A stretch of DNA of 64,000 nt from Escherichia coli (GTDB taxonomy: Bacteria; Pseudomonadota; Gammaproteobacteria; Enterobacterales; Enterobacteriaceae), in assembly GCF_048403405.1 (NCBI RefSeq), contig NZ_CP183129.1. One strand, 5' to 3'. A program made the translations under genes and the position numbers. This document shows positions 7,012 through 38,788 of the stretch, piece after piece (the stretch's first letter is position 1; each line of letters opens with the position of its first letter). Under the pieces are notes generated by a model. That model was not told the DNA's origin and made no database searches. It saw nothing but the letters and a program-made list of their open reading frames with translations.

Positions 7012-7044
7012 CCCCGCCAGCTATAATCGCGGGGCTTCGTTTTT
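7012..7044 (+). terminator. Putative rho-independent terminator downstream of ykgJ
   Basis: ccccgc ... gcgggg stem followed by cttcgttttt. Confidence 0.4.
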
Positions 7045-7195: not shown

Positions 7196-7223
7196 AAAAT
7201 GGCGCTGCATTTGCGCCATTTTT
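7196..7223. terminator. Putative bidirectional terminator between ykgJ and yagU
   Basis: aaaatggcgc-tgcattt-gcgccatttt perfect hairpin flanked by A and T runs on both sides. Confidence 0.5.
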
Positions 7224-7236
7224 ATTATTCAATGCA

Positions 7237-8257: not shown

Positions 8258-8947
8258 ATGAGCAACCAAGGCGAATACCCCGAAGATAATCGGGTTGGGA
8301 AGCACGAGCCGCACGATTTTAGTTTGACCCGTCGCGATCTGATTAAAGTCAGCGCCGCAACGGCGGCGACCGCCGTGGTTTATCCTCATTCTACGCTTGC
8401 AGCAAGCGTTCCGGCAGCTACACCCGCGCCAGAGATAATGCCCCTGACACTTAAGGTGAACGGCAAAACCGAGCAGTTGGACGTTGATACCCGAACCACG
8501 CTACTGGACGCTTTGCGTGAAAATCTGCATCTGATCGGTACCAAGAAAGGTTGCGATCACGGGCAGTGCGGAGCCTGTACCGTGCTGGTCAATGGTCGCA
8601 GGCTTAATGCCTGCCTGACGCTTGCAGTCATGCATCAGGGGGCCGAGATCACCACCATTGAAGGCCTGGGTTCACCAGAGAATCTTCACCCCATGCAGGC
8701 GGCCTTTATCAAGCATGATGGCTTCCAGTGCGGCTACTGCACCTCCGGGCAAATTTGCTCATCAGTAGCGGTGCTAAAAGAGATTCAGGACGGCATTCCC
8801 AGTCACGTCACGGTCGATTTGGTTTCCCCTCCAGAAAGAACGGCCGATGAGATCCGTGAACGTATGAGCGGCAACATCTGTCGCTGTGGAGCATACGCTA
8901 ACATCCTTGCCGCCATTGAAGACGCTGCGGGGGAGATAAAATCATGA
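8258..8947 (+). CDS. paoA: Periplasmic aldehyde oxidoreductase, 2Fe-2S subunit PaoA (Tat signal)
   Basis: Twin-arginine motif LTRRDLIKV; two Cys clusters ([11 protein letters not shown] and CRCGAY) typical of 2Fe-2S ferredoxin subunits. Confidence 0.95.
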
Positions 8948-9900
8948 AGGCGTTTACCTATGAACGAGTGAACACCCCGGCCGAGGCGGCACTTAGCGCT
9001 CAGCGCGTACCCGGCGCAAAATTTATCGCTGGCGGGACCAATCTGCTGGACCTGATGAAGCTGGAAATTGAAACGCCAACCCACCTTATCGATGTGAACG
9101 GGCTCGGGCTCGATAAGATTGAAGTGACCGACGCGGGTGGGCTGCGCATCGGCGCACTGGTACGGAACACCGACCTGGCAGCTCACGAGCGCGTGCGTCG
9201 TGATTACGCGGTACTCTCCCGCGCCCTGCTCGCTGGCGCGTCTGGTCAGTTACGTAATCAGGCAACCACCGCAGGTAATCTGCTCCAGCGCACGCGCTGC
9301 CCCTATTTTTACGACACCAATCAGCCCTGCAATAAGCGCCTGCCCGGGAGCGGCTGCGCGGCACTTGAAGGCTTTAGCCGTCAGCACGCGGTGGTAGGCG
9401 TAAGCGAAGCCTGCATTGCCACCCATCCGAGCGATATGGCGGTCGCAATGCGGTTGCTGGATGCGGTGGTGGAAACCATCACGCCGGAGGGAAAGACTCG
9501 CAGTATCACACTGGCTGATTTTTATCACCCTCCAGGAAAAACGCCGCACATTGAAACCGCCCTGCTTCCCGGTGAGCTTATCGTTGCGGTGACGTTACCT
9601 CCGCCGCTCGGCGGAAAACATATTTACCGTAAGGTGCGCGATCGCGCCTCCTACGCCTTTGCCCTGGTATCGGTCGCAGCGATTATTCAGCCTAACGGCA
9701 GCGGGCGCGTCGCGCTGGGCGGAGTAGCACATAAGCCCTGGCGCATTGAGGCTGCGGATGCTCAGCTATCCCAGGGGGCGCAGGCCGTGTATGACGCGCT
9801 GTTCGCCAGCGCCCATCCCACCACTGAAAACACCTTTAAACTCCTGTTGGCGAAGCGAACGCTTGCCTCCGTACTGGCTGAAGCGAGGGCACAGGCATGA
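8944..9900 (+). CDS. paoB: Aldehyde oxidoreductase FAD-binding subunit PaoB
   Basis: 318-aa ORF overlapping paoA stop; CO-dehydrogenase flavoprotein-like. Confidence 0.93.
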
Positions 9901-12095
9901 AATTTGATAAACCCGCAGGGGAAAACCCGATTGATCAGCTGAAGGTTGTCGGTCGTCCCCATGACCGTATCGACGGACCGCTGAAAACTACCGGCACGGC
10001 ACGCTACGCCTACGAATGGCATGAAGAAGCCCCCAACGCCGCCTATGGTTATATCGTCGGTTCCGCCATTGCCAAAGGATGCCTCACCGCCCTCGATACG
10101 GACGCCGCGCAAAAAGCGCCGGGCGTACTGGCTGTCATTACCGCCAGTAACGCCGGGGCACTCGGCAAAGGCGACAAAAACACCGCCAGGCTGTTAGGCG
10201 GCCCCACTATTGAGCACTATCATCAGGCCATTGCGCTGGTAGTGGCCGAGACCTTCGAACAGGCACGAGCGGCGGCCTCGCTGGTGCAGGCGCACTATCG
10301 CCGTAATAAAGGAGCTTACTCCCTGGCGGACGAGAAACAGGCCGTCAGTCAGCCGCCGGAAGACACGCCCGATAAAAATGTTGGTGACTTTGACGGGGCT
10401 TTCACCTCCGCTGCGGTGAAGATTGATGCTACCTACACGACCCCGGACCAGAGCCATATGGCGATGGAACCGCATGCCTCGATGGCCGTCTGGGATGGAA
10501 ATAAGCTTACCCTCTGGACCTCAAATCAGATGATTGACTGGTGCCGCACCGATCTGGCAAAAACGCTGAAAGTGCCCGTGGAGAATGTGCGTATTATCTC
10601 CCCGTATATCGGTGGAGGGTTTGGCGGCAAGCTGTTCCTGAGAAGCGATGCGCTGCTGGCGGCCCTCGCCGCCCGTGCGGTGAAACGTCCGGTTAAAGTG
10701 ATGCTCCCCCGCCCCACTATTCCCAATAACACCACGCACCGCCCCGCCACCCTTCAGCACCTGCGTATCGGTGCCGACCAGAGCGGGAAAATCACTGCTA
10801 TCTCACATGAAAGCTGGTCCGGAAACCTGCCCGGCGGCACGCCGGAAACGGCGGTACAGCAAAGCGAATTTCTTTACGCAGGGGCGAATCGTCATACAGG
10901 CCTGCGGCTCGCCACGCTTGATTTGCCGGAAGGGAACGCCATGCGTGCGCCCGGCGAAGCCCCCGGTCTGATGGCGCTCGAAATCGCGATCGACGAACTG
11001 GCGGAAAAAGCGGGCATCGATCCCGTCGAGTTTCGCATCCTGAATGACACTCAGGTTGACCCCGCCGACCCGACGCGCCGCTTCTCTCGCCGTCAGCTTA
11101 TTGAGTGCTTGCGCACCGGAGCGGATAAATTTGGCTGGAAGCAGCGAAACGCCACCCCCGGACAGGTACGCGACGGGGAGTGGCTAGTCGGCCACGGTGT
11201 TGCGGCGGGCTTTCGCAATAATCTGCTGGAAAAATCGGGTGCGCGGGTTCACCTGGAGCAAAACGGCACCGTTACCGTGGAAACGGACATGACCGATATT
11301 GGCACTGGCAGCTACACCATTCTGGCCCAGACGGCAGCGGAAATGCTTGGCGTACCGCTGGAGCAGGTTGCGGTTCACCTCGGCGATTCCAGTTTCCCGG
11401 TTTCTGCGGGTTCTGGTGGACAATGGGGCGCGAATACCTCCACCTCCGGCGTTTACGCCGCCTGTGTGAAACTTCGCGAAATGATTGCCTCGGCAGTCGG
11501 GTTTGATCCTGAGCAGTCGCAGTTTGCCGACGGCAAGATTACCAACGATACCCGAAGCGCCACGCTACATGAGGCCACCGCAGGCGGCAGACTGACAGCG
11601 GAAGAGAGCATTGAATTCGGAACAATGAGCAAGGAGTACCAGCAATCGACCTTTGCCGGGCATTTTGTGGAGGTCGGCGTGCATAGCGCGACGGGAGAAG
11701 TTCGGGTCCGGCGTATGCTCGCCGTGTGCGCAGCGGGGCGCATTCTGAATCCGAAAACTGCACGCAGCCAGGTCATTGGCGCAATGACTATGGGCATGGG
11801 CGCGGCACTGATGGAGGAGCTGGCGGTAGATGACCGTTTGGGCTACTTCGTTAATCACGATATGGCGGGGTATGAGGTGCCGGTCCATGCGGATATCCCA
11901 AAACAGGAGGTGATTTTCCTGGATGATACCGACCCCATCTCCTCCCCGATGAAGGCCAAAGGTGTCGGTGAGCTGGGCCTGTGCGGCGTGAGCGCGGCTA
12001 TCGCCAACGCGGTGTATAACGCCACCGGTATTCGGGTACGGGATTATCCCATCACTCTGGATAAGCTGCTCGATAAACTGCCGGATGTGGTTTAA
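9897..12095 (+). CDS. paoC: Aldehyde oxidoreductase molybdopterin-binding subunit PaoC
   Basis: 732-aa ORF; xanthine dehydrogenase large-subunit-like. Confidence 0.95.
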
Positions 12096-12104
12096 GGAGG
12101 AACA

Positions 12105-13061
12105 ATGTCATACTCGCTTTTTGACAAAGACGAGCACTGGCATAAGCCAGAGCAGGCGTTTCTCACCGATGACCACCGGACCATTCTGCGCTTCGCCGTA
12201 GAGGCGCTAATGTCCGGTAAAGGAGCGGTGCTGGTGACGCTGGTGGAGATACGCGGCGGCGCGGCGCGCCCGCTCGGGGCGCAGATGGTGGTGCGCGAAG
12301 ATGGTCGTTACTGCGGTTTTGTCTCTGGCGGCTGCGTGGAGGCCGCTGCCGCTTTTGAAGCGCTGGAGATGATGGGCTCAGGCCGCGATCGCGAAATTCG
12401 CTATGGTGAAGGTTCGCCGTGGTTTGACATCGTTCTGCCCTGCGGCGGTGGGATCACGCTGACGCTCCATAAACTACGCTCGGCACAGCCTCTGCTCGCC
12501 GTGCTGAACCGCCTGGAACAGAGAAAACCGGCGGGTCTGCGCTACGATCCGCAAGCTCAATCGCTGGTGTGCCTGCCCACGCAAACCCGGACGGGCTGGA
12601 ATCTCAATGGCTTTGAGGTGGGGTTCAGACCATGCGTCAGTCTGATGATTTACGGACGTTCTCTTGAGGCGCAGGCAACCGCGAGTCTTGCAGCAGCCAC
12701 AGGCTATGACAGCCATATCTTCGATCTTTTTCCGGCCTCAGCCAGCGCTCAGATCGATACCGATACGGCGGTCATTTTGCTGTGCCATGATCTCAACCGG
12801 GAGCTGCCAGTGTTGCAGGCCGCGCGAGAGGCAAAACCCTTTTATCTCGGCGCATTGGGCAGCTATCGAACCCACACTTTACGTCTGCAAAAGCTCCACG
12901 AGCTGGGATGGTCCAGGGAGGAGACAGCGCAAATCCGGGCACCCGTCGGGATATTCCCCAAAGCCCGGGATGCGCATACTCTGGCACTCTCCGTGCTGGC
13001 AGAAGTCGCCTCTGTACGTCTCCATCAGGAGGAGGATTCATGCCTGCCCCCGTCGTCCTGA
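12105..13061 (+). CDS. paoD: XdhC-like molybdenum cofactor insertion chaperone PaoD
   Basis: 318-aa ORF immediately after paoC. Confidence 0.9.
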   Translation: MSYSLFDKDEHWHKPEQAFLTDDHRTILRFAVEALMSGKGAVLVTLVEIRGGAARPLGAQMVVREDGRYCGFVSGGCVEAAAAFEALEMMGSGRDREIRYGEGSPWFDIVLPCGGGITLTLHKLRSAQPLLAVLNRLEQRKPAGLRYDPQAQSLVCLPTQTRTGWNLNGFEVGFRPCVSLMIYGRSLEAQATASLAAATGYDSHIFDLFPASASAQIDTDTAVILLCHDLNRELPVLQAAREAKPFYLGALGSYRTHTLRLQKLHELGWSREETAQIRAPVGIFPKARDAHTLALSVLAEVASVRLHQEEDSCLPPSS

Positions 13062-13125
13062 TCCTTGCGGCCGGGCGTGGAGAGCGCTTTCTCGCCTCCG
13101 GGGGAAATACCCATAAATTAAGAGA
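13040..13125 (+). pseudogene. Possible 5' remnant of a MobA/MocA-like nucleotidyltransferase gene
   Basis: ATG overlapping paoD stop encodes MPAPVVLILAAGRGERFLASGGNTHKL, resembling the N-terminal NTP-transferase motif; similarity is lost after about 28 codons. Confidence 0.3.
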
Positions 13126-13240
13126 AAAATCTGCAGTAGCCGTTTTAGAAAATCACCTAAATCGTTTAAAAGAGCACCCAACCCATAGTGGGCGCTCATC
13201 GCCTTGTGTAACTTATTCAGCAACGCGCGCCCTCGCCGGA

Positions 13241-14434
13241 CTAAAGCGCACCGGCCTTCTGGCGTGCGGTAACAAAGGTCAGTACGCCAGCGCAAAGGAG
13301 CAGCACGCTACTCATAGCAAACGTGCTCTGCCAGCCAAGGCGGTCAAATACGATGCCTCCTGCTGTTGATCCAAGGGCGATGGAGAGCTGAATCACCGCG
13401 ACCATGAGCCCGCCTCCGGCTTCGGCGTTGTCAGGCAACGTACGCGCAATCCATGTCCACCATCCGGTTGGCGCGGCGGTGGCCAGCATGCCCCAGAGTC
13501 CTAACAGCAGCGAGACCGTCCAGACGTGATGCCCGGTCAGCATCAGACCGATAGCAATGACGGCCATCAGTCCGGGTATGGCCATCAGCGTGGGGTAGAA
13601 TTTTCTGTTGAGAAATGCCGAAACAACCAGCGTGCCAATAAAACCGGCCACGCCGATAATCAGCAAAATCAACGACAAGCCTAAGGAATTAACCCGTGTC
13701 ACCGACTCCAGAAACGGGCGCACATAGGTGAATAGTGCAAACTGCCCCATGAAAAACAGGCAGCAGGCTATCATGCCGACCACAACCATGCGGCGGCTAA
13801 ATAAGCGGAATACCGCGCCACATGAAGTGTGGCTTTTATTCGCATCCATGCTTGGCAGGCTGATGCACTGCCAGATAAAGGCGACAACCGCGATGGGCAC
13901 CAGGCACAAGAAAGCGCCTCGCCATCCGACCGTAGCCCCCAGATAGCTTCCCAGCGGTGCGGCCACGACCGTCGCCAGCGCATTACCGGCGTTGAAAATT
14001 GCCAGCGCACGCGTGACCTGATGCTGCGGCACCAGACGAATCGCCGTTGCCGCTGACATCGACCAGAATCCGCCAATAGCCACACCAATCATCGCACGAC
14101 CGACCATATACATCAGATAACTGGAAGCCAGCGCAATAATAAGCCCCGATACGGCCATCAGAACCGTCATCCCCAGCAGCAGGAACTTACGATTCATCTT
14201 TCCAGCTAGCGTTGAAAGCGTCAGGCTGGTCAGAACCGCCAGCGCGCCGGAGATAGCAATCCCCTGCCCTGCCAGCCCCTCCGTCACGCCTAAATCGCGG
14301 GTAATCGGCGTGAGCAGGCTGACGGGCATAAATTCAGAAGCAATCAGCACAAACACGCACAGGGTCATGGCAAAAATACCGCCCCAGTATGCGCGCTGAT
14401 GATGAGGTGATAGTGTTTGGCTTAGTGTCGACAT
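13241..14434 (-). CDS. Major facilitator superfamily transporter (12-TM)
   Basis: 397-aa hydrophobic ORF with MFS-like loop motifs. Confidence 0.85.
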   Translation of the reverse strand: MSTLSQTLSPHHQRAYWGGIFAMTLCVFVLIASEFMPVSLLTPITRDLGVTEGLAGQGIAISGALAVLTSLTLSTLAGKMNRKFLLLGMTVLMAVSGLIIALASSYLMYMVGRAMIGVAIGGFWSMSAATAIRLVPQHQVTRALAIFNAGNALATVVAAPLGSYLGATVGWRGAFLCLVPIAVVAFIWQCISLPSMDANKSHTSCGAVFRLFSRRMVVVGMIACCLFFMGQFALFTYVRPFLESVTRVNSLGLSLILLIIGVAGFIGTLVVSAFLNRKFYPTLMAIPGLMAVIAIGLMLTGHHVWTVSLLLGLWGMLATAAPTGWWTWIARTLPDNAEAGGGLMVAVIQLSIALGSTAGGIVFDRLGWQSTFAMSSVLLLCAGVLTFVTARQKAGAL

Positions 14435-14509
14435 AGTGAAATTTCACAAAGATCAGGATAAAAGCCACCAGCCTATGGCCGGTGGCTTTGCATCAATTCA
14501 GGAGAGGTT

Positions 14510-15646
14510 TTATTTCAGTTTGGTCTGGAAAAATTGTTCGAACTTCGCGAAAGGTATTTTTCCGGCCACGTTATCGTACAGGTCCACGTGATTTGCCCCT
14601 GGTACCACCACCAACTCTTTGTCTTTACTGCCAACCGCCTTGTAAGCATCTTCAGCAAAATAGCGTGAATGTGCTTTCTCACCGGTCACAATCAGCGTCG
14701 GAATGGTGATTTCACTGGCGTAGCTCAACAGCGGCATATTCATAAATGACAGCGGCATCGTTGCCGTCCACGCCCCGGTAGAGTTAACGGAACGTTCGTG
14801 GAAGCCGCGCGGCATGCGATAGTAGTCAAAGAACTCTTTCAGTACCGGATGAGGATTTGCCGGCAGCGTTTCTGGCAGAATGCGCTCGCCCGCACTGACC
14901 TTGCCGTTGCTGTCGACATTAATATCATGACCACCGTGAGCGAACGTTCCGCTCTGCGCATCCTTCCAGCGCTGTTCATTCAGATATTGCAGAACGGCAC
15001 GACGGTCGGCGGTAGAATAACGGTCTTTGCCATCCCCCACACCATGACCCATCGCCCGGCTCATGTCATACATCACGCTGGTAGCTACCGCTTTAACGCG
15101 GGTATCCATCGCCACGTCGTTCAGCGCCATGCCGCCCCAGCCACAAATACCGAGCAGCCCGATACGGTTGCGATCTACCTCTTTTTGCAGCCCTAAGAAA
15201 TCCACCGCCGCGCTGAAATCTTCAGTGTTGATATCCGGTGAGGCGACGTTTCGCGGATAGCCGCCGCTTTCCCCGGTGTAAGAAGGATCGAACGCCAGGG
15301 TAACAAACCCTCGTTCCGCCAGCGTCTGCGCATACAAGCCGCTGGATTGCTCTTTCACCGCGCCAAATGGCCCACTGACCGCAATCGCCGCCAGCTTGCG
15401 ATCGCCACGGTCTTTAGGCAGGTAAAGATCGCCCACTAAGGTGATGCCATATCGGTTCGGGAACGAGACTTTACGGTGATCGACTTTCTGGCTCTCGGCG
15501 AACGTTTTATCCCATTTATCTGTCATGGACACAGGGGCATTAGGATTGGTTGAATCAGCATAACTCATTGTCGTGACTCCACTTAATGATGCGAAAAGCA
15601 GCATGGTCGGCATCGCGGTTTTTAGCGTGCGGGTGAAGGCTTTCAT
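14510..15646 (-). CDS. Secreted alpha/beta-hydrolase-fold protein (putative Cys/Ser hydrolase)
   Basis: N-terminal signal peptide; nucleophile-elbow-like GICGWGG motif; ends VVVPGANHVDLYD. Confidence 0.7.
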   Translation of the reverse strand: MKAFTRTLKTAMPTMLLFASLSGVTTMSYADSTNPNAPVSMTDKWDKTFAESQKVDHRKVSFPNRYGITLVGDLYLPKDRGDRKLAAIAVSGPFGAVKEQSSGLYAQTLAERGFVTLAFDPSYTGESGGYPRNVASPDINTEDFSAAVDFLGLQKEVDRNRIGLLGICGWGGMALNDVAMDTRVKAVATSVMYDMSRAMGHGVGDGKDRYSTADRRAVLQYLNEQRWKDAQSGTFAHGGHDINVDSNGKVSAGERILPETLPANPHPVLKEFFDYYRMPRGFHERSVNSTGAWTATMPLSFMNMPLLSYASEITIPTLIVTGEKAHSRYFAEDAYKAVGSKDKELVVVPGANHVDLYDNVAGKIPFAKFEQFFQTKLK

Positions 15647-15832
15647 AAAAATCCCCATAAAAAACAACAGAGAGATACAGGTTTCCGACGGACAACGCTG
15701 CGGTGCTTTACTTTGATGGGGTCATTATAGTGAGCAGAATTAGTGCTGATTAGGGGGCGATTAATGCTAAGATTAATACCATATTGTTATAAATTAATGT
15801 GGAGATTGCCGGCATGAAGGGGGGATGTTTCA

Positions 15833-16717
15833 ATGGCGAAAAGGGAGAACTACAACGAGCTGTACCTGTTTATGCAGGTGGTGCGAGAAGGCAGCTTTAC
15901 CGCAGCGGCTCAGCGGCTGGGTCTTGCTCAGTCAGGAGTCAGCCGTTCTGTTCGCGAGCTTGAAGAAAGGCTGGGTGTCCAGCTGCTAGTGCGCACCACG
16001 CGTAAACTGTCGCTGACACAAGCAGGCGAGCAGCTCTACCAGAAGACGGCATCTGGATTTGAAATGTTAGATCTTGGGCTTGCCACACTGGCGCACTATC
16101 GAGAGACGCCCTCCGGCACGGTGCGTATCAATGCCAGCCAGCACGCGATTGATAAATGCCTGCTGCCAAAGCTGGCGGTATTTAAACAGCGATATCCTGA
16201 TATCCGGCTTGAACTGATAAATGAGAGCCGGTTCGTCGATATCATCGAGGAAAGATTCGATGCAGGTGTCCGCCTGGGGCCTGAAGTCGGCCAGGGTATG
16301 GTCGCGGTACGCATCACGCCCGATATGGAGATGGCAATTGTGGGGACTCCGGAACATTTTCGTCGCTATGGTTTTCCGCAAACCCCGGCGGATTTAAAGG
16401 CGCATCCCTGTATCGCCTATCAGTTTGCCGACGGCAGCGTATACCAGTGGGAACTCAATCAGGATGATAAAAAAATCACTCATCGCCCTGAAGGGCAATG
16501 GGCCTTATCCGACAGCTATATGGAAGCAGAAGCCGCCCGGCTGGGCCTCGGATTGGCCTATGTTCCTGTTGAACTGGTCGCGGATGATTTAGAACACGGT
16601 AAGCTTATCAGGGTGTTGCAGCGTTACAGCCTGCGAATGGAGGGATTGTTTCTCTATTACCCTCATCGCAACGTCTCCCCCGCCCTGCGGATGGTCATTG
16701 ATACATTGAAAATCTGA
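15833..16717 (+). CDS. LysR-family transcriptional regulator
   Basis: 294 aa; N-terminal HTH FTAAAQRLGLAQSGVSRSVRELEERLGVQLLVRTTRKLSLTQAG; divergent from the hydrolase-MFS pair. Confidence 0.88.
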   Translation: MAKRENYNELYLFMQVVREGSFTAAAQRLGLAQSGVSRSVRELEERLGVQLLVRTTRKLSLTQAGEQLYQKTASGFEMLDLGLATLAHYRETPSGTVRINASQHAIDKCLLPKLAVFKQRYPDIRLELINESRFVDIIEERFDAGVRLGPEVGQGMVAVRITPDMEMAIVGTPEHFRRYGFPQTPADLKAHPCIAYQFADGSVYQWELNQDDKKITHRPEGQWALSDSYMEAEAARLGLGLAYVPVELVADDLEHGKLIRVLQRYSLRMEGLFLYYPHRNVSPALRMVIDTLKI

Positions 16718-16789
16718 ACGTTAACAACGACCGACTCTTTACTGTGCAATATTGTGTCAGGTAGTCCCTCTGCGTTCAATTCCAGGGTT

Positions 16790-17210
16790 TGTACTGACCC
16801 CAAAAAGTTGGACAGTTAAACACGAGGCATATAGGTCTGATTCCGATATTCAATTGGAGTCAGACCTTTTAATTTCAGGCTAATTCTTCTGCTGTTGTAG
16901 TATTCAATATATTCCGTAACAGCATCCTTCAGTTCGCTTATATTACTGAACTCATCAAGATAAAAACACTCCGACTTTAAGGTTCCAAAGAAACACTCCA
17001 CCACAGCATTATCCAGACAATTGCCTTTTCTGGACATGCTTTGTTTAATACCATGTTCTTTAAGGATATTTTGATATCTTCTCATACGATACTGCCATCC
17101 CTGGTCAGAGTGCAGAACAGGATGCTCGTGAGGATTAAGCTTTTTGAATGCCTGATCGAGCATATTCTCAACCATGTTCATCACTGGTCTTTCCGAAAGG
17201 CTGTAAGAAA
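16790..17210 (-). mobile_element. IS3-family (IS150-group-like) element, right part: orfB C-terminal fragment plus terminal repeat
   Basis: Minus-strand translation ...[47 protein letters not shown]...; end sequence tgtactgaccccaaaaagttggac; abuts IS26 at 17211. Confidence 0.8.
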
Positions 17211-18030
17211 GGCACTGTTGCAAATAGTCGGTGGTGATAAACTTATCATCCCCTTTTGCTGATGGAGCTGCACATGAACCCATTCAAAGGCCGGCATTTT
17301 CAGCGTGACATCATTCTGTGGGCCGTACGCTGGTACTGCAAATACGGCATCAGTTACCGTGAGCTGCAGGAGATGCTGGCTGAACGCGGAGTGAATGTCG
17401 ATCACTCCACGATTTACCGCTGGGTTCAGCGTTATGCGCCTGAAATGGAAAAACGGCTGCGCTGGTACTGGCGTAACCCTTCCGATCTTTGCCCGTGGCA
17501 CATGGATGAAACCTACGTGAAGGTCAATGGCCGCTGGGCGTATCTGTACCGGGCCGTCGACAGCCGGGGCCGCACTGTCGATTTTTATCTCTCCTCCCGT
17601 CGTAACAGCAAAGCTGCATACCGGTTTCTGGGTAAAATCCTCAACAACGTGAAGAAGTGGCAGATCCCACGATTCATCAACACGGATAAAGCGCCCGCCT
17701 ATGGTCGCGCGCTTGCTCTGCTCAAACGCGAAGGCCGGTGCCCGTCTGACGTTGAACACCGACAGATTAAGTACCGGAACAACGTGATTGAATGCGATCA
17801 TGGCAAACTGAAACGGATAATCAACGCCACGCTGGGATTTAAATCCATGAAGACGGCTTACGCCACCATCAAAGGTATTGAGGTGATGCGTGCACTACGC
17901 AAAGGCCAGGCCTCAGCATTTTATTATGGTGATCCCCTGGGCGAAATGCGCCTGGTAAGCAGAGTTTTTGAAATGTAAGGCCTTTGAATAAGACAAAAGG
18001 CTGCCTCATCGCTAACTTTGCAACAGTGCC
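17211..18030 (+). mobile_element. IS26 copy 1 (820 bp, complete)
   Basis: Terminal inverted repeats ggcactgttgcaaa at 17211 and its reverse complement ending at 18030; internal Tnp26 ORF. Confidence 0.95.
17271..17978 (+). CDS. tnpA: IS26 transposase Tnp26 (IS6 family)
   Basis: [57 protein letters not shown]... Confidence 0.95.
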   Translation, partial: HMNPFKGRHFQRDIILWAVRWYCKYGISYRELQEMLAERGVNVDHSTIYRWVQRYAPEMEKRLRWYWRNPSDLCPWHMDETYVKVNGRWAYLYRAVDSRGRTVDFYLSSRRNSKAAYRFLGKILNNVKKWQIPRFINTDKAPAYGRALALLKREGRCPSDVEHRQIKYRNNVIECDHGKLKRIINATLGFKSMKTAYATIKGIEVMRALRKGQASAFYYGDPLGEMRLVSRVFEM

Positions 18031-18743
18031 CTTGCTGGTAGTGGTTCTGTAGCCAGGTGGCTGAAGGTCTATGAAGAGCGCGGAGAAGCTGGTTTACGCG
18101 CGCTCAAGATTGGCACCAAAAGAAACATTGCAATATCAGTTGATCCAGAAAAAGCGGCATCAGCATTGGAGCTGTCAAAAGACCGACGCATTGAGGATCT
18201 TGAAAGGCAAGTTCGATTTCTTGAAACGCGGCTTATGTATCTAAAAAAGCTGAAAGCCTTAGCTCATCCCACGAAAAAGTAAAAGTACTCAACGAGCTAA
18301 GGCAGTTTTATCCTCTTGATGAGCTTCTCAGGGCTGCGGAGATACCGCGCAGTACGTTTTATTACCATCTAAAGGCTCTCAGCAAGCCTGACAAGTATGC
18401 GGACGTTAAAAAGCGTATTGGTGAGATTTATCACGAGAATAGAGGCCGATACGGATACCGTAGGGTAACGCTGTCTCTTCATCGAGAAGGGAAACAGATT
18501 AACCATAAAGCTGTTCAGCGCCTGATGGGAACCCTCTCACTTAAAGCAGCGATTAAGGTCAAGCGATACCGCTCTTACAGAGGAGAGGTAGGGCAAACCG
18601 CCCCTAATGTTCTCCAAAGAGATTTCAAGGCTACGCGGCCAAACGAGAAGTGGGTTACCGATGTTACTGAATTTGCAGTCAATGGGCGCAAGCTGTATTT
18701 GTCTCCAGTAATAGATCTCTTCAACAACGAAGTTATTTCTTAC
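18031..18743 (+). mobile_element. IS3-family element, internal part: orfA 3' region, A6G slippery site, orfB N-terminal fragment
   Basis: A-AAA-AAG frameshift heptamer at 18243-18249; orfB N-terminus ...[36 protein letters not shown], which continues in frame with the minus-strand fragment at 16816-17210. Confidence 0.8.
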
Positions 18744-19563
18744 GGCACTGTTGCAAAGTTAGCGATGAGGCAGCCTTTTGTCTTATTCAAAGGCCTTACA
18801 TTTCAAAAACTCTGCTTACCAGGCGCATTTCGCCCAGGGGATCACCATAATAAAATGCTGAGGCCTGGCCTTTGCGTAGTGCACGCATCACCTCAATACC
18901 TTTGATGGTGGCGTAAGCCGTCTTCATGGATTTAAATCCCAGCGTGGCGTTGATTATCCGTTTCAGTTTGCCATGATCGCATTCAATCACGTTGTTCCGG
19001 TACTTAATCTGTCGGTGTTCAACGTCAGACGGGCACCGGCCTTCGCGTTTGAGCAGAGCAAGCGCGCGACCATAGGCGGGCGCTTTATCCGTGTTGATGA
19101 ATCGTGGGATCTGCCACTTCTTCACGTTGTTGAGGATTTTACCCAGAAACCGGTATGCAGCTTTGCTGTTACGACGGGAGGAGAGATAAAAATCGACAGT
19201 GCGGCCCCGGCTGTCGACGGCCCGGTACAGATACGCCCAGCGGCCATTGACCTTCACGTAGGTTTCATCCATGTGCCACGGGCAAAGATCGGAAGGGTTA
19301 CGCCAGTACCAGCGCAGCCGTTTTTCCATTTCAGGCGCATAACGCTGAACCCAGCGGTAAATCGTGGAGTGATCGACATTCACTCCGCGTTCAGCCAGCA
19401 TCTCCTGCAGCTCACGGTAACTGATGCCGTATTTGCAGTACCAGCGTACGGCCCACAGAATGATGTCACGCTGAAAATGCCGGCCTTTGAATGGGTTCAT
19501 GTGCAGCTCCATCAGCAAAAGGGGATGATAAGTTTATCACCACCGACTATTTGCAACAGTGCC
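18744..19563 (-). mobile_element. IS26 copy 2 (820 bp, complete, inverted relative to copy 1)
   Basis: Identical Tnp26 ORF on minus strand; inverted repeats at 18744 and 19563. Confidence 0.95.
18796..19503 (-). CDS. tnpA: IS26 transposase Tnp26
   Basis: Protein identical to the copy at 17271-17978. Confidence 0.95.
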
Positions 19564-19803
19564 GATGATTTCAGATTTCATGACTTGAGACACACCTGGG
19601 CAAGTTGGCTGGTTCAAGCCGGTGTCCCGTTGTCAGTGTTACAGGAAATGGGAGGCTGGGAGTCTATCGAAATGGTTCGTCGATATGCTCACCTCGCACC
19701 TAATCACCTTACCGAACACGCACGGCAAATAGACTCGATCCTGAACCCATCGGTCCCAAATTTGTCCCAGTCAAAAAATAAGGAAGGTACTAATGATGTG
19801 TAA
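19564..19803 (+). pseudogene. P4-like tyrosine integrase, C-terminal about 80 codons (5' part replaced by IS26)
   Basis: ...[47 protein letters not shown]... carries the catalytic H-x-x-R and Y region; stop lies 14 bp from the tRNA-Thr 3' end. Confidence 0.8.
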
Positions 19804-19817
19804 CTTATTGATTTAAA

Positions 19818-28606: not shown

Positions 28607-29221
28607 TTACACAGCGACAAAAGCCATCCCTGTAAACGTTCGTCGCGGGTTGCCACGTTCAATCTGGTGATGGAACATTCGCCGCTGCGATTTCAGCGCC
28701 GCGCTATTTTTCTGTTGCTGCTGCTCCAGCTTCCAGGCAATCAGCAATCGCGCCAGCCGTTTGTTAGCATGCTGGCTGCGCTCTGACTGAACCTTCACGC
28801 TAATCCCGGATGCCAAATGCGTGGCGCGTACCGCCGAGTCGGTTTTATTGACATGTTGACCGCCCGGCCCCGACGAACGCAGCGTCTCATACCGGATCGC
28901 ATCGGATTGCTCCTGCTCATCAGCGGTAAAACGCCCAATGCCCAGAAACCAGTTTTTGCGCCCATGATGAGGCCGATACGGACTCGGACAAATCCACTGA
29001 ATAGTGCCGCACCAACTTTCGCTTAATGCCCATGCATTATCGCCATCCAGAGAAACCAGCGCTGAACGCAGCGTGTCAGAGTAGCGGCCCGTTTCTGTTT
29101 CCAGCACCGTTACCGCGACGTCTTGTCGGGTAGCTTCTTTAATCAGCCTGTCCAGTGCCTTTTTCACTGCGAGACAACATTCTTCCGGCCCCTGCGCTGA
29201 GGAGAGTTGTAGCAAGATCAT
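28607..29221 (-). CDS. prfH: Peptide chain release factor homolog PrfH
   Basis: GGQ motif ([28 protein letters not shown]); start at [11 protein letters not shown]; overlaps rtcB2 stop. Confidence 0.85.
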
Positions 29222-30369
29222 CCTTTTTTCCCTCCACTGTTTTTGAGCGTTAGCACCGGACGCAGTCGCGCGACAGGAATAATTAAACCGGCTTGCACCA
29301 GACATTGCACCACACTTTCAGCCGATTTATAGGCTTGTGGCGCTTCTTCGAAGATGAGTTGTTTATCGCGACAAATCACCCGGCTGCCAAGTTCAGTACG
29401 CGAGAGTTGCGTCGCCGTGTAATTCGCTGCCAGACGCCCTTTACACTCGGTGCGCCCCCATTTACGCCCTGCCCCATGCGCCAGCGAGTGGAGCGTTTTT
29501 TCGTTCGCAACAGGTTTAACCAGCCAGGAGTAATCACCGCGTGAACCGGGAATAATCACCAGACCGTTGTCATCCGGCGTGGCACCTTTACGATGCAACC
29601 AGCCCTGTTGATCGCCGATTTGGCACGCGCTAACAAAGTTATGCGCCACATCCAGAACCGGACTTCCGGTGGCCTTAACTTGTTGCATTATGCGCAAAGC
29701 GATCATCTGGCGATTAATACGCGCAAACGCCAGCGCATCGTCATGTTCCGCAATATACCGTAGCGCGTCGTCACTGCCTTCAGGCAAACCATGATGCGAA
29801 AACGAGGCAATATGCCGCTGTAAAATAGACTGCCCCAACCCCCTCGAGCCGCTATGAACCAGCAGTTGCAGATGCTGCGCATCCAGACCTGCCAGTGCAA
29901 ACAGTTCAGCGTCGATGATTTCATCAACTTGTTGCAGTTCTGCAAAGTGGTTTCCGCCACCGATAGAGCCAAGCGAGCTGCGCCACGAATGCTGTGCAAA
30001 TGCTGACGGCAGGTTTTCCTCCAGCCAGCTTTCTTCAGCAACGTCATCCAAAGCTGATAATCGCTTTTCAAACTTATCGGCGTTGTATTTACGAGCGAGA
30101 ATATCTGTTTGCCATAGCGCCATGCCGCAGCCGATATCATTGCCGACCAGTGCCGGGTAAAAACGGCCTGCGGAGAAGAACGCTGCGCCAATCGGGTAGC
30201 CGCGTCCGGGATGTAAATCTGGCATCCCTACTACGCGCTGCATGTTGGGTAAATTTGCCGTGGTGTGTAATTGTTGGATCGCTAAACTCTCGATCCACAG
30301 GTCATCAGATGCGATGGTAAATACCGCATCGGATAAGGGACGAATATATTTGCCCATGTACCATTCCAT
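29218..30369 (-). CDS. rtcB: RtcB-family RNA ligase (RtcB2, PrfH-associated)
   Basis: 383-aa ORF with RtcB-type metal-binding His/Cys residues ([31 protein letters not shown]). Confidence 0.85.
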
Positions 30370-31137: not shown

Positions 31138-31536
31138 TCAAAAACGCATGCGAAACGCTTCTGCCATTTTTCCAATTTTATGCATTTGGTTGTTATCTCG
31201 AGCCAGTTTATGAGGTTCAGGCTTCAGAATGGCAATGAGCAACCATGCTTGCTCATCAAACGCACCCTGACAATATACCAAATGCGCTTCGTCATTCGTT
31301 CTGCTGAATTGGCACAACTGTGGCGGAAATGGATTATTCACATTTGCCAGATGAATATGAGCAACTCGCTCAAATTTGATTAATGGCCAGGTAAACGAGT
31401 CGTCGTAGAGTGCATCGCGACCAAATATATCTGGCAAAATACCGTCACGCTTATAGGAAATAAAATCCGCCGTTAACGCATCAAGTTCCTCTGCTGTAAG
31501 TTGCAGGCGAATAAGTTTTGTTTTGAATACCCGCAT
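31138..31536 (-). CDS. yafO: Ribosome-dependent mRNA interferase toxin YafO
   Basis: 132-aa ORF MRVFKTKLIRLQLTAEELDALTADFISYKRDG... Confidence 0.9.
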   Translation of the reverse strand: MRVFKTKLIRLQLTAEELDALTADFISYKRDGILPDIFGRDALYDDSFTWPLIKFERVAHIHLANVNNPFPPQLCQFSRTNDEAHLVYCQGAFDEQAWLLIAILKPEPHKLARDNNQMHKIGKMAEAFRMRF

Positions 31537-31538
31537 CC

Positions 31539-31832
31539 TTATTCCTTAAAGTCATTGAAATCATCATCCGTCATATCATTAAGATATTGTTCAGCGCGGC
31601 GTGTAATTTCCTCTAATCTTGCAGCACTCGGACGGAAGCGCGCCTTTATGGGCTTTTTCTCCTCTTGTTCAGCAAGCATGTCCATTAACGCTTCGAATGC
31701 GCTGGCACTTAAGAGATATCCTGCGGGGCGATTATTAGAAAGAACCGCAACCGGTTGATCAATAAAGTATTTAGCTGGGTTTTTACGTAACTCAGTGATA
31801 TTGACCGATTTTTCAGCGAGAATTCGATGCAT
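31539..31832 (-). CDS. yafN: Antitoxin YafN
   Basis: 97-aa ORF MHRILAEKSVNITELRKNPAKYF...; 2-bp gap to yafO. Confidence 0.9.
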   Translation of the reverse strand: MHRILAEKSVNITELRKNPAKYFIDQPVAVLSNNRPAGYLLSASAFEALMDMLAEQEEKKPIKARFRPSAARLEEITRRAEQYLNDMTDDDFNDFKE

Positions 31833-32971: not shown

Positions 32972-33009
32972 TGATTTCAGGGTTTGAGAAATGCGTAAAG
33001 ATTCAGCAT

Positions 33010-33740
33010 CTAGCGCGTTCGCTGCGAATGCACCTGCTGCTTATCCAGCTTTTGCACCAGCGGCTGCACCACTTTATCCCCATGCTGACCAAAGTATTGA
33101 TACAGCGTATCGGACGCACTTTTGGTCAGCACCATAATCTCAATGCGTCGGTTGCCCGCGCTTTGCGGATTTTTCGCGTCCAGCAGCATCTGGTCCGCCA
33201 TCGCGCTCACCTGCATCACTTTATCTTCCGGCATTCCGGCCTCTTCCAGCACCCGACGAGCCGAAAGCGCGCGATCGCCCGAAAGGTTCCAGTTGTTGTA
33301 GATATTGTTTTTGTAGGCCATCGCATCGGTATGCCCGGTAATAATAATTTTGTTATCGAGCGAGTCGAACACTGGCGCGAGCTCCACCAGCAAAGTTTTA
33401 AAGAACGGCATAATCTGTGCGCTGCCGCGTTCAAACATATTGCGGTTCTGGTCATCTTTAATCAGCACGCGCAGTCCCTGGGGAACAATCTCCATCTCCA
33501 GATTCGCTTCCATATGTGCATCACGGGCAATGGTGTTGATACTGGTCGCCAGCTCGCCAAGCTCAGTAGCGGATTTCTTCTTCAGCAGCGCCGTTTTCTC
33601 ATTGACGTCACGCGCTTTTTTCTCCGTCTCTTCCGGCACCGCCACGGTGGCAGGTTTTGGCGGATGAGACAGGCTGATTTTATTTAACGGCGACAACCCG
33701 CCGCCATTGAAAATCGACTGCCCGTGCAGCGCGGCGATAA
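33010..33740 (-). pseudogene. lafU: Lateral flagellar motor protein LafU (MotB-like), N-terminally truncated: Flag-2 remnant
   Basis: C-terminal OmpA-like domain present (...IIITGHTDAMAYKNNIYNNWNLSGDRALSARRVLEEAGMPEDKV...NRRIEIMVL); no N-terminal TM anchor. Confidence 0.7.
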
Positions 33741-35479
33741 TGCTTTCACGCTCGGATTTACTGACGCTGTTGACAATCAACTTTATCGTCGTCACCAAAG
33801 GGGCCGAGCGTATTTCCGAGGTTTCTGCCCGCTTTACCCTGGACGCGATGCCCGGCAAACAGATGGCGATTGACGCCGATCTTAACGCCGGGTTGATCAA
33901 CCAGGCGCAGGCGCAAACCCGGCGTAAAGATGTTGCCAGCGAGGCCGATTTCTACGGCGCAATGGACGGGGCATCGAAGTTTGTGCGCGGGGATGCCATC
34001 GCCGGGATGATGATTCTGGCGATCAACCTGATCGGCGGCGTCTGTATCGGGATCTTCAAATACAACCTGAGCGCCGATGCCGCCTTCCAGCAATATGTGC
34101 TGATGACCATCGGCGACGGACTGGTGGCGCAGATCCCGTCCCTGCTGCTTTCCACCGCGGCGGCGATTATCGTCACCCGCGTCAGCGACAACGGCGATAT
34201 TGCCCATGACGTGCGTAACCAGTTGCTGGCAAGCCCGTCGGTGCTCTACACCGCCACCGGGATCATGTTTGTGCTGGCGGTTGTGCCGGGGATGCCGCAT
34301 CTGCCGTTTTTGCTGTTCAGCGCCCTGCTTGGTTTTACCGGCTGGCGGATGAGCAAACGCCCGCAGGCGGCGGAGGCGGAAGAGAAAAGCCTCGAAACAC
34401 TGACCCGAACCATCACCGAAACCAGCGAGCAACAGGTCAGTTGGGAAACTATTCCGCTGATCGAGCCCATCAGCTTAAGCCTCGGCTACAAGCTGGTGGC
34501 GCTGGTGGACAAAGTACAGGGTAACCCGCTCACCCAGCGGATTCGCGGCGTGCGGCAGGTGATTTCTGACGGTAACGGCGTGCTGCTGCCGGAGATCCGC
34601 ATTCGGGAAAACTTCCGCCTCAAGCCCAGCCAGTACGCCATTTTCATCAATGGCATTAAGGCTGATGAAGCGGATATTCCGGCGGATAAACTGATGGCCC
34701 TGCCCTCCAGCGAAACCTACGGCGAGATTGACGGCGTGCTGGGGAACGACCCGGCGTACGGGATGCCGGTGACCTGGATCCAGCCCGCGCAGAAAGCGAA
34801 AGCGCTGAATATGGGGTATCAGGTGATCGACAGCGCCAGCGTGATTGCCACCCATGTGAACAAGATTGTCCGCAGCTATATTCCTGATTTGTTTAACTAT
34901 GATGACATCACGCAGTTGCATAACCGTTTGTCGTCGATGGCACCGCGCCTGGCGGAAGATTTGAGCGCGGCGCTCAATTACAGCCAATTGCTGAAAGTGT
35001 ACCGGGCGCTGCTGACCGAAGGCGTTTCCCTGCGCGATATTGTCACCATCGCCACCGTGCTGGTCGCCAGTAGCACAGTGACCAAAGATCATATCCTGCT
35101 GGCGGCCGATGTGCGCCTGGCATTGCGGCGCAGCATTACCCATCCGTTCGTTCGCAAGCAGGAGCTGACGGTGTATACGCTGAATAATGAGCTGGAAAAT
35201 CTGCTCACCAACGTGGTGAATCAGGCGCAACAGGGCGGGAAAGTGATGCTCGACAGCGTGCCGGTCGATCCGAATATGCTCAACCAGTTCCAGAGTACGA
35301 TGCCGCAGGTAAAAGAGCAGATGAAAGCGGCGGGGAAAGACCCGGTGCTGCTGGTGCCGCCGCAGTTGCGTCCTTTGCTGGCGCGTTATGCAAGGTTGTT
35401 TGCGCCGGGGCTGCATGTGCTGTCGTATAACGAAGTGCCGGACGAGCTGGAGTTGAAGATTATGGGGGAGTTGAGTTGA
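33707..35479 (+). pseudogene. lfhA: Lateral flagellar export protein LfhA (FlhA-like), N-terminally truncated: Flag-2 remnant
   Basis: FlhA-like from ...NFIVVTKGAERISEVSARFTLDAMPGKQMAIDADLNAG onward; lacks the first roughly 100 residues. Confidence 0.7.
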
Positions 35480-35576
35480 TGGGGGAGACTATATAAGGTC
35501 TCGGACTGTCCCCTCGCCCCTTTGGGGAGAGGGAGAAAAACGTGTACGACTTTAACTTTTTCGCAGTATTGCCGTC

Positions 35577-36335
35577 CTACAAAATCGTCTCTTCCGTCAA
35601 AATCCTGCGCGCGCCTAAAAAATGATCCTGCCAGAAAGGTTCAGCTAACCGACTTACCCGAATGGTTTCCCCGGTGCGCGGCGACTCAATAAACTGTCCA
35701 TCGCCCAGATACACGCCCATATGGTCGGCAATCTCGCGGCTGTGGATATGAAAAAACAGCAAATCTCCCCGGCGCAGGTCGTTATTCGCCACAATGGTTG
35801 CCCGGCGAAAGTGATACATCTCATTAGCCGTGCGTGGGAGCTTCGCCTCGAGGATCTTGTTGTAGGCATAAAAAACCAACCCGCTACAGTCGAAGCCTTG
35901 ATCGGGCCGCGTGCCGCCCCAGACGTAAGGCTTGCCAAGCTGCTGCTCCAGGCGGTGAATCGCCACTTCGGTGATGTTGTGTAGATGGTCGCTGCTTAAG
36001 AAATGGTTGTTCTCCGCCAGCGCCTGCCAGCGTCTGTCACTTGCCTTGAGCGGCGCAGGAAACCATTCTGGATGCTGTTTTATCTGTTCGCGGTTGTGCT
36101 GGCGCAGCGCCTTTCTGCTTTCGGCATTGCCTTCCACAATATAGCTGGCCTGTTTTTTCAGATGGGTTTGGTACTGTTTTAATAAACGCGCACGGTTTTG
36201 CATCCGCTGGCGGGCGGCGTAGCTGAAAGAGATATGTGATGTGGTGGCGCTGGCGAGTAAAGGGAGCAAAACGCATAACGAAAACACGCCTGGATGCAGA
36301 AATCTGCCGAGCAAGAACGAAGACATGAAGGACAT
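35577..36335 (-). CDS. yafL: NlpC/P60-family putative peptidoglycan endopeptidase lipoprotein YafL
   Basis: C-terminal NlpC/P60 motifs (GFDCSGLVFYAY, ...DHMGVYLGDGQFIESP). Confidence 0.85.
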   Translation of the reverse strand: MSFMSSFLLGRFLHPGVFSLCVLLPLLASATTSHISFSYAARQRMQNRARLLKQYQTHLKKQASYIVEGNAESRKALRQHNREQIKQHPEWFPAPLKASDRRWQALAENNHFLSSDHLHNITEVAIHRLEQQLGKPYVWGGTRPDQGFDCSGLVFYAYNKILEAKLPRTANEMYHFRRATIVANNDLRRGDLLFFHIHSREIADHMGVYLGDGQFIESPRTGETIRVSRLAEPFWQDHFLGARRILTEETIL

Positions 36336-36626
36336 AAACCGGCTGAATGAAGGTGAGAATTTTAAAAGACCAGAGGAGTAAACGGGATTATTAATTGCTT
36401 ATTTGCATATTACTATTGAGGTTTCATAATCTTAGGAAATAAATGATACATGCGCTTTTCGGACTATTGAAAACTGCCCCTGTGCTAAATTTGTAAACCC
36501 TGCGCCGACAGGCTTGCGTAAAACTCTTTTGGTGATAATGTGAGCCTTCCCAATCCAGACTATTCCGATTTGGGATCCATTTTGCCGTCCTGGCGTGTGT
36601 AACCGTTTTATCAAGGAATAAGCAGT

Positions 36627-37367
36627 ATGCGTAAAATCGCATTAATTCTTGCGATGTTGTTGATCCCGTGCGTTTCGTTTGCCGGTTTGCTGGGCAGCAG
36701 TAGCTCGACCACGCCAGTGAGCAAAGAGTATAAGCAGCAGTTGATGGGATCCCCTGTCTACATCCAGATCTTCAAGGAAGAACGTACACTCGATCTCTAC
36801 GTCAAAATGGGCGAGCAATATCAACTGCTCGACAGCTATAAAATCTGTAAATATTCCGGCGGCTTAGGGCCAAAACAGCGTCAGGGCGATTTCAAAAGCC
36901 CGGAAGGGTTTTATAGCGTCCAGCGTAATCAGTTAAAACCAGACAGCCGTTACTACAAAGCGATTAATATTGGATTCCCCAATGCCTATGACCGTGCGCA
37001 TGGTTATGAAGGGAAATATCTGATGATCCACGGCGATTGTGTTTCCATCGGCTGCTACGCGATGACCAATCAGGGTATTGATGAGATCTTCCAGTTCGTT
37101 ACTGGTGCGCTGGTTTTTGGTCAGCCGAGCGTGCAAGTGAGTATTTACCCGTTCCGCATGACCGACGCCAATATGAAGCGCCATAAATATTCCAACTTTA
37201 AGGACTTCTGGGAGCAACTGAAGCCGGGCTACGACTACTTTGAGCAAACCCGTAAGCCACCGACCGTTTCTGTGGTCAATGGCCGTTACGTGGTCAGCAA
37301 GCCGTTAAGCCACGAAGTTGTGCAACCACAGCTGGCATCAAACTACACGCTCCCCGAGGCAAAATAA
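36627..37367 (+). CDS. yafK: L,D-transpeptidase-like protein YafK (LdtF/DpaA)
   Basis: 246-aa secreted protein with YkuD-like [12 protein letters not shown] motif. Confidence 0.9.
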
Positions 37368-38105
37368 GCGCCATTCGCCTGGCATAATCTTTTGCCAGGT
37401 TTCATTGCCCGTCAGCGGCTGTGTCGCAATCACCGTGACCACATCATTCGGTGTGGTCTGCGAGCTGAAGTCGATTTCCACATCCTGATCCAGCAACGTT
37501 GCCACGCCAAACGGCGCGCGGCGGGTGATCCAGTGTAAATTAGTCGAGCAATACGCCATTACATAGCGCCCGTCAGAAAGCAGCATGTTGAAAACGCCCT
37601 TCTGCCGCAGTTCATCCGCCAGTGAGGCGATATATTTAAACACTGCCGCCATGTTGCCCGGTGTGCGCGGGTAACGCTGCGTTAATTTATGCAGGAGCCA
37701 GCAGAAGGCTTTTTCGCTGTCGGTTTCACCGACCGGGCGGAAGTTGCCGGTTTCCAGTGATTTATAGCCCGTCAGTTGCCCATTATGGGCATAAGTCCAG
37801 TTACGCCCCCATAACTCGCGGGTAAACGGGTGAGTATTTTCCAGCGCCACCTCGCCCCGATTCGCCTGGCGAATATGAGCCACCACCGAACAGGATTTTA
37901 TCGGGTAGTCCTGGACAAGTTTGGCGATGGGGGAATTAAAGCTGGGTTGCGGATCTTTAAATGTGCGACAGCCTTTACCTTCGTAAAAGGTAATGCCCCA
38001 GCCATCTTTATGTGGCCCGGTTCCACCACCACGCTGTACAAGTCCGGTGAAACTAAAGCAGATATCGGTAGGGACGTTGGCGCTCATCCCGAGCAATTCG
38101 CACAT
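37338..38105 (-). CDS. yafJ: Class II glutamine amidotransferase YafJ
   Basis: Start [19 protein letters not shown] (N-terminal Cys nucleophile after Met). Confidence 0.9.
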
Positions 38106-38209
38106 AGGTAACCTCCACAACAGCGGGAGCGCATGGCCCCCGGCGAAGATTGATTTAAGTATTTTCAGGTCGGATGCGGCGTAAACGCATTATTCGGCCT
38201 ACGCCAGAC

Positions 38210-38788
38210 TTACTTAACCATCTCTTTTTCAATTAACTGGATCAGGATATGGATCACTTTAATGTGGATCTCCTGAATGCGGTCGGCATAACCAAAGTGC
38301 GGTACGCGAATTTCGATATCCGCTGTGCCAGCCATTTTACCGCCGTCTTTACCGGTCAGGGTGATCACTTTCATCCCCTTCTCACGCGCCGCCGCGATCG
38401 CTTTGATCACGTTTGCAGAGTTACCGGAGGTGGAGATCCCCAGTAGTACATCGCCTTCGCGACCTACCGCTTCAACGTAACGGGAGAAAATATCGTTGAA
38501 ACCAAAATCGTTACCGACGCAGGAAATATGACTAACGTCAGAAATGGCAATCGCCGGATAGCCCGGACGGTTTTCACGGTAGCGCCCCGTCAACTCTTCG
38601 GCAAAGTGCATAGCGTCGCAATGGGAGCCGCCGTTGCCACAGGAAAGCACTTTGCCACCAGCTTTAAAACTGTCTGCTAACAGGACCGCCGCGCGCTGAA
38701 TGGCGTGAATATTGGCGTCATCTTTTAAAAAGTTAGCCAGCGTTTCCGCCGCTTCGTTCAGTTCGTTACGAATAAGATCCTGGTACAT
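38210..38788 (-). CDS. gmhA: Sedoheptulose-7-phosphate isomerase (phosphoheptose isomerase)
   Basis: Start [21 protein letters not shown]; 192 aa; SIS domain. Confidence 0.95.

Follow-up and report, generated by a model that had tools for sequence, protein, structure and literature searches.

The narrow gaps on either side of yafL raise two questions: whether the strain lacks genes that K-12 carries at this position, and what stands there instead. The stretch analysed, 64 kb long and hereafter called the window, is E. coli DNA that corresponds in reverse orientation to K-12 coordinates 239-263 kb. An earlier note on this sequence had placed lfhA about 100 bp from yafL and yafL 291 bp from yafK, and had named rayT and the dinJ-yafQ toxin-antitoxin (TA) pair as the K-12 occupants of these gaps. 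Both distances are borne out, with 97 bp for the first gap (35480-35576) and 291 bp for the second, or 300 bp if yafL starts as in PGAP. The gene order given for K-12 is also right; the MG1655 annotation reads yafK(dpaA)-yafQ-dinJ-yafL-rayT-lfhA'.

Two segments beside yafL differ from K-12

The genes and intergenic segments of the locus are as follows.

31138..31832, minus strand: yafN-yafO, a TA pair 3' of dinB (yafN 31539-31832, yafO 31138-31536)
33761..35479, plus strand: lfhA', a Flag-2 flhA paralogue without its N-terminus, from the open reading frame listing (PGAP: 'incomplete; missing N-terminus')
35480..35576: lfhA-yafL spacer of 97 bp, counterpart of the 896-bp rayT and REP segment of K-12
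35577..36326, minus strand: yafL, an intact NlpC/P60 (C40) peptidase gene encoding 249 aa
36255..36486: allele-specific segment of 232 bp, comprising yafL codons 1-24 (signal peptide) and the yafL upstream region
36487..36626, plus strand: conserved upstream region of yafK/dpaA, 98% identical to K-12
36627..37367, plus strand: yafK (dpaA), encoding a protein 100% identical to that of K-12

An alternative ATG at 36335, which is the start chosen by PGAP, would extend YafL to 252 aa. The complete genome of strain TUM14771 (NZ_CP128875.1) is 100% identical over 5.2 kb, and PGAP annotates the same genes there.

The order and orientation of the flanking genes are the same in K-12 MG1655 (b0224-b0229), as is the dinB-yafNOP operon, but MG1655 carries rayT with its REP clusters and dinJ-yafQ, none of which is in the window, and its YafL signal peptide and yafL upstream region are unlike those of the window. 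The alignment across yafK-lfhA that the earlier note had proposed is colinear except for both replaced segments; by blastn the flanks match at 97-98% identity save in these two places. Specifically, window positions 35475-35571 correspond to 896 bp in K-12, the whole rayT and REP gap between lfhA and yafL, in which rayT lies between REP clusters. Positions 36255-36486 correspond to 838 bp with dinJ-yafQ, codons 1-24 of yafL and the yafL upstream region, within a yafL-yafK gap that measures 906 bp in K-12. The part of yafL common to K-12 and the window is just 93.7% identical. The Flag-2 deletion junction between lfhA' and lafU' is the same as in K-12, with colinearity across the junction at 97.1% (blastn).

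Searches with protein queries agree with this comparison. K-12 RayT, DinJ and YafQ have no tblastn match in the whole 64-kb window at E<=1e-3, so the absence of rayT and dinJ-yafQ from both gaps, which the earlier note had proposed, holds in the blastn comparison and the tblastn search alike, and a dinJ-yafQ copy in the immediate flank, the event that the note had named against itself, is not found. Furthermore, the 97-bp gap is too small for the 498-bp rayT gene (K-12 RayT has 165 aa). HicA and HicB, searched with queries from strain ETEC1748, also have no tblastn match in the 64-kb window at E<=1e-3. The note's statement that yafN-yafO is kept stands: full-length matches lie between dinB and yafP, with YafN 100% and YafO 97.7% identical to K-12 (tblastn). 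With dinJ-yafQ missing and yafN-yafO present, the TA repertoire at the yafL locus does differ from that of K-12.

Relative to K-12, the two gaps that flank yafL are not simple deletions, because both hold sequence without a K-12 counterpart, namely a 97-bp spacer with the remnant of a BoxC element and the 232-bp segment. We consider it very probable that two intergenic sites beside yafL are polymorphic and that the window shows one of their allele combinations, with nothing broken or misassembled. From the yafL locus, the strain would make no YafQ, DinJ or RayT. That rayT or dinJ-yafQ lies at another position of the source genome is excluded only on statistical grounds, because both are essentially single-copy and about 34% and about 38% of genomes, respectively, are without them.

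The lfhA-yafL spacer holds the remnant of a BoxC pair

The spacer contains three small features.

35485..35502: short inverted repeat GAGAC-N8-GTCTC in the left part of the spacer, conserved in a 167-bp allele (E. coli 7CC, Pseudocitrobacter vendiensis)
35511..35533: remnant hairpin of BoxC/PIT/TMECO type, CCCTCGCCCCTTTGGGGAGAGGG, the sole remnant of an inverted BoxC pair
35572..35580: CCGTCCTAC, which overlaps the yafL stop codon (GTAG, minus strand) and at which K-12 homology resumes

The spacer is free of REPs. The REP core GCCGGATGCGGCG, allowing up to two mismatches, has no match in 35480-35576, and K-12 has seven around rayT. All that the spacer has in common with the REP/BIME clusters of K-12 is its terminal CCGTCCTAC, which is identical to the final 9 bp of the yafL-adjacent REP in that strain. 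The spacer is near-identical, minus 70 bp, to the 167-bp spacer of E. coli 7CC, E. coli PCN033 and P. vendiensis. The 167-bp allele is built of an inverted element pair whose arms, CCCTCGCCCCTTTGGGGAGAGGGTTAGGGTGAGGGG and CCCTCGCCCCTTTGGGGAGAGGGCCGGGGTGAGGG, correspond to BoxC/PIT/TMECO types 'A mm' and 'B mm'; these types, the motif definition and the K-12 copies are given in Table 1 of the BoxC study used here (PMC4666352). Both arms of this allele, in E. coli 7CC and P. vendiensis, fit the three-block BoxC consensus.

The window retains the first two of these blocks alone, CCCTCGCCC-CTTT-GGGGAGAGGG at 35511-35533. The full consensus, CCCTCNCCC-N3-6-GGGNGAGGG-N3-GGGNGAGGG, has no match in the window with up to three mismatches, and an intact three-block BoxC was rejected on this motif scan. 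The missing 70 bp end at the near-repeats GGGGAGAGGG and GGGGCGAGGG. This comparison indicates that the 97-bp spacer is the 167-bp spacer less 70 bp lost inside the BoxC palindrome; such a deletion within an inverted BoxC pair would leave a single hairpin. Published BoxC sites behave in the same way. In the sections drawn on here, Holder et al. (2015, PMC4666352) describe BoxC sites as hotspots of small rearrangements, and palindromic sites in which part of both copies has been lost and a hairpin stays. In the window, the C-rich block and the first of the G-rich blocks likewise stay in a collapsed hairpin, but this copy is without the third block (GGGNGAGGG) and no longer fits the triplex consensus. 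The lfhA-yafL site is not among the 23 BoxC copies of K-12, because K-12 has rayT there.

BoxC palindromes are common in the species, with a median of 21 places per genome matching the full palindrome across 5,408 E. coli genomes; among the matches listed, none lies under an annotated feature. Several other identities were considered for the gap sequences and rejected. A search for Rfam families in 33000-38500 at E<=1 returned only sub-threshold chance matches (Antizyme_FSE and HOTTIP_3). For an intrinsic terminator in the 97-bp spacer, a consensus scan found none and folding z-scores were weak (-1.7 and -2.3). The spacer also does not represent the flanks of a deleted hicAB pair, with which it has just the initial ~17 bp and some loose similarity at the right end in common, the core being unrelated.

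The dinJ-yafQ allele of K-12 is derived

At the yafL-yafK site, outgroup loci were fetched with a YafL query. No dinJ-yafQ was present in the fetched loci of Citrobacter, Phytobacter and E. albertii or in those of two other non-coli Escherichia genomes, and one Escherichia sp. genome among the outgroup loci has it. The 232-bp segment of the window aligns over its whole length with other E. coli that lack the TA pair and with one further Escherichia genome (L014). E. albertii and two other Escherichia genomes have the same type of YafL N-terminus as the window (…GVFSLCVLLPLLASATTSH), and Citrobacter has this type in a diverged form. In contrast, the K-12 form of this N-terminus (MSLPSIPSFVLSGLLLICLPFSSFASATTSH) occurs only in carriers of dinJ-yafQ.

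Because the TA-free allele is common to E. albertii, other Escherichia species and Citrobacter, sequence comparison identifies it as ancestral and the K-12 dinJ-yafQ allele as derived. By the same comparison, the K-12 allele is an 838-bp replacement segment; with it came dinJ-yafQ as well as another signal peptide and upstream region for YafL. Both alleles have the 140 bp directly upstream of dpaA in common, and the dinJ-yafQ polymorphism therefore lies upstream of this region. The site would hold divergent promoters, and about 62% of E. coli, including K-12, would have received the derived replacement. In the window strain, YafL would be exported with the ancestral-type signal peptide and expressed from the native promoter.

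Frequencies of the alleles in E. coli

Alleles were counted in 5,426 complete E. coli genomes. At the yafL-yafK site, dinJ-yafQ is present in 3,340 genomes (62%) and the TA-free segment of the window type in 2,084 (38%). This site is almost perfectly biallelic, as the two alleles cover 5,424 of the 5,426 genomes.

The lfhA-yafL site is more varied. A match to rayT anywhere in the genome was counted in 3,575 of the 5,426 genomes (66%), and the gene is essentially single-copy in its carriers. A junction with hicAB occurs in 1,370 genomes (25%). The 97-bp junction of the window is found in 125-126 (2.3%), including strains MS6198, IMT16316 and ECONIH1, which probably belong to ST648 / phylogroup F. 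The 167-bp spacer with the inverted BoxC/PIT pair is rarer still (22 genomes, 0.4%), and both lengths of the BoxC spacer together make up ~2.7% of E. coli. Subtraction leaves about 330 genomes, a remainder that includes strain GPEC1209, in which a 274-bp REP cluster without a gene occupies the site. Thus the lfhA-yafL site has at least five states: rayT with REPs, hicAB, REPs only, the 167-bp spacer and the 97-bp spacer. At these convergent 3' ends, the minority BoxC spacer would sit where rayT with REPs, or hicAB, sits elsewhere.

Independent reshuffling around yafL

The hicAB allele (ETEC1748, IrN, M8; ~25% of complete genomes) is, like the window, without rayT, and its lfhA terminus and the next ~17 bp (…GTTGAGTTGATGGGGGA) are the same as in the window. 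It differs in having a 788-bp gap with the HicA/HicB pair, both genes of which are absent from the window. ETEC1748 and the window are 99.7% identical from yafL to yafJ and 96.1% identical in lfhA, yet the former has hicAB and the latter the BoxC spacer between lfhA and yafL. Strains IrN and M8 present a second case, as both carry hicAB and their yafL bodies are 99.4% identical, and dinJ-yafQ is present in IrN and missing from M8. Because of these two contrasts, the alleles at both sites and the yafL body appear to have been reshuffled independently among lineages by homologous recombination.

The yafL body itself (window 35577-36254) is unusually variable, at 92.6-97% identity within E. coli vs 97-99% for yafK, and this polymorphism is independent of which alleles flank the gene. 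The possibility that a divergent yafL was imported together with dinJ-yafQ was rejected: the 92.6-97% range holds among all lineages whatever their dinJ-yafQ status, and the 99.4% identity of IrN and M8 spans a difference in that status.

A 3.4-kb contig classified as 'MAG: Clostridiales bacterium' (SFGJ01000062.1; L009) also carries this arrangement, with an E. coli-type YafL (97.6%), HicB/HicA (99-100%) and LfhA (99.5%). It almost certainly represents E. coli contamination or mis-binning in the MAG.

History of the lfhA-yafL site

The last codons of lfhA in the window (…GELS*) are of the '…LS*' type, which the hicAB and BoxC alleles share with Citrobacter. The K-12 terminus reads '…ALM*', and this altered form goes with K-12-type rayT alleles. 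Citrobacter itself has a plain hairpin spacer of 43-44 bp without rayT between lfhA and yafL, which is not homologous to the spacer of the window. Within Escherichia, E. albertii and three further non-coli genomes carry rayT between lfhA and yafL. By this comparison, rayT is probably old in the genus, and its presence looks ancestral there. RAYTs are vertically inherited according to published work, which matches this age. In Escherichia sp. E1V33 (L015), a rayT carrier, the ancestral-type lfhA terminus GTTGAGTTGATGGG is followed directly by a REP; this junction is possibly an intermediate between the spacer-type and K-12-type junctions.

Several explanations for the compact gaps were weighed against the reading that they are standing alleles. 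Recent loss of both units from a K-12-like ancestor, by REP-REP recombination at rayT and excision of dinJ-yafQ, is in our judgement very unlikely. The ancestral position of rayT in Escherichia would fit such a loss, as would the REP-only allele of GPEC1209, which looks exactly like a REP-REP deletion of rayT, and the match of the last 9 bp of the spacer to the REP end that adjoins yafL. However, the spacer has no REP, and its remaining 88 bp are unrelated to K-12 and nearly the same in P. vendiensis and the 167-bp allele; also, the lfhA terminus of the window is the one shared with Citrobacter rather than the K-12 type. Deletion furthermore cannot create 232 bp that are missing in K-12 or an outgroup-type YafL signal peptide, and at the yafL-yafK site the outgroup comparison contradicts a recent loss. 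An assembly or sequencing artefact, such as the collapse of a REP cluster or other repeat, is scarcely credible. Assembly does struggle with REP clusters and palindromes, and it is within a palindrome that the 70 bp differ, but the identical 5.2-kb stretch comes from a finished genome, 125-126 independent complete genomes have the 97-bp junction, a further 22 have the 167-bp form, and the segment at the second site is present in 2,084.

Two further proposals concern the source of the BoxC spacer. Homologous recombination with a Pseudocitrobacter-like donor might have brought in the spacer and displaced rayT, which we regard as unlikely. The spacers of the window and P. vendiensis have 1-2 differences in 97 bp, apart from the 70-bp indel, in a setting where flanking lfhA is 94.7% and yafL 89.7% identical; a Pseudocitrobacter MAG has the same element after yafL; and the allele is rare in E. 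coli (~2.7%, both lengths). Against a foreign origin, Pseudocitrobacter lfhA is as close to the window (94.7%) as other E. coli lfhA genes are (94-96%), Pseudocitrobacter yafL does not adjoin yafK, yafJ, gmhA or fadE, BoxC is native and abundant in E. coli, and P. faecalis has the rayT allele, which places both alleles in both genera. It is more economical to suppose that Pseudocitrobacter acquired an Escherichia-type yafL-Flag-2 block. The other proposal, that the BoxC spacer is the surviving unoccupied form of a site at which rayT and REPs became fixed in Escherichia, is doubtful; instead of having been kept as an 'empty' site, the spacer may have been imported later. If the spacer were such a survivor, this would explain the ancestral-type lfhA terminus and the coincidence of the yafL stop GTAG with the conserved REP tetranucleotide. 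The rayT, hicAB and BoxC alleles would then be an old polymorphism across lineages, exported with the Flag-2 block to Pseudocitrobacter, and the locus would show both the capture of a domesticated transposase and why hairpin-forming elements recurrently target one convergent gene junction.

The Pseudocitrobacter loci were noted in their own right. P. faecalis (L011) and P. vendiensis (L012), with yafL at 6001-6735, have an Escherichia-like block of yafL, rayT or BoxC, and lfhA/Flag-2, in which lfhA has ~93-95% nucleotide identity to the window. The rayT/BoxC difference between these two species falls at the site that also varies among E. coli strains. Such sequence similarity suggests that the yafL-Flag-2 block moved between genera, more probably from Escherichia.

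Relation to published work and to K-12 as a reference

The finding is already known in kind, as RAYT-less strains, erratic TA content and unstable BoxC palindromes have all been published. E. coli genomes without a RAYT exist and have fewer REPINs (Park, Gokhale & Bertels 2021, PMC8049555). About one third of E. coli are without the single-copy yafM/rayT, a class to which the window belongs at the yafL locus; the occupant of the empty site is not described in the portions of that study used here. Similarly, hardly any two E. coli strains have the same TA content, and sites of TA insertion are elsewhere empty or filled with REPs, other elements or other TA pairs (Fraikin, Goormaghtigh & Van Melderen 2020, PMC7167474). 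The passages of that review drawn on here cite yafNO and mazEF as examples, with operons undisturbed where the TA pairs are absent. The window follows this pattern of TA pairs in intergenic sites that are empty or otherwise filled in other strains, but the sites flanking yafL are not among the examples in those passages, and here one site alternates between rayT with REPs, hicAB and BoxC. As far as the consulted parts of this literature go, the particulars of this locus seem not to be set out, but they are descriptive.

The practical meaning is accordingly modest. The strain is among the ~1/3 of E. coli without RayT at this locus and the ~38% without DinJ-YafQ, which is relevant where the TA or REP biology of K-12 serves as a reference for this lineage and matters little beyond annotation. 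Three points are useful details of the locus rather than new biology: K-12 is derived at dinJ-yafQ, the YafL signal peptide has been rewritten in the K-12 allele, and one junction has rayT with REPs, hicAB and BoxC as alternating occupants.

With no RayT made from this locus, active propagation of the REP/REPIN population would not be expected. The part of the window that is colinear with K-12 (19808-42937) contains one REP core vs ten in K-12, and the extra K-12 REPs are all in the rayT flanks or in one yafJ-gmhA cluster. A depletion of REPs across the window was considered and rejected; the comparison covers ~23 kb of colinear sequence, too small a sample for a general statement. The yafJ-gmhA gap (window 38106-38212; L001 4123-4327) is 101 bp longer in K-12, where a three-REP cluster, with an extra REP pair, stands vs a single REP in the window. 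The short form is also found in ETEC1748, and the long form in the remaining inspected E. coli loci, with or without rayT.

Other features of the window

Outside the colinear stretch, window positions 42938-64000 and 1-19807 are not colinear with K-12 200-300 kb, and the CP4-6 prophage region of K-12 is unmatched save for a 2.3-kb block near paoC/paoD. An rtcB-family RNA ligase gene and prfH are intact in the window (29133-30150, within the open reading frame 29218-30369, and upstream; L002 7037-9358). Beside them, a metal-dependent hydrolase gene and a small hypothetical gene adjoin pepD. At the rtcB/prfH position, K-12 has only ykfJ and prfH pseudogene remnants, and ~1 kb of the window is without a K-12 counterpart. 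Beyond yafV, the TUM14771 genome carries an ISEc1 transposase, an RHS core protein and a T6SS VgrG gene.
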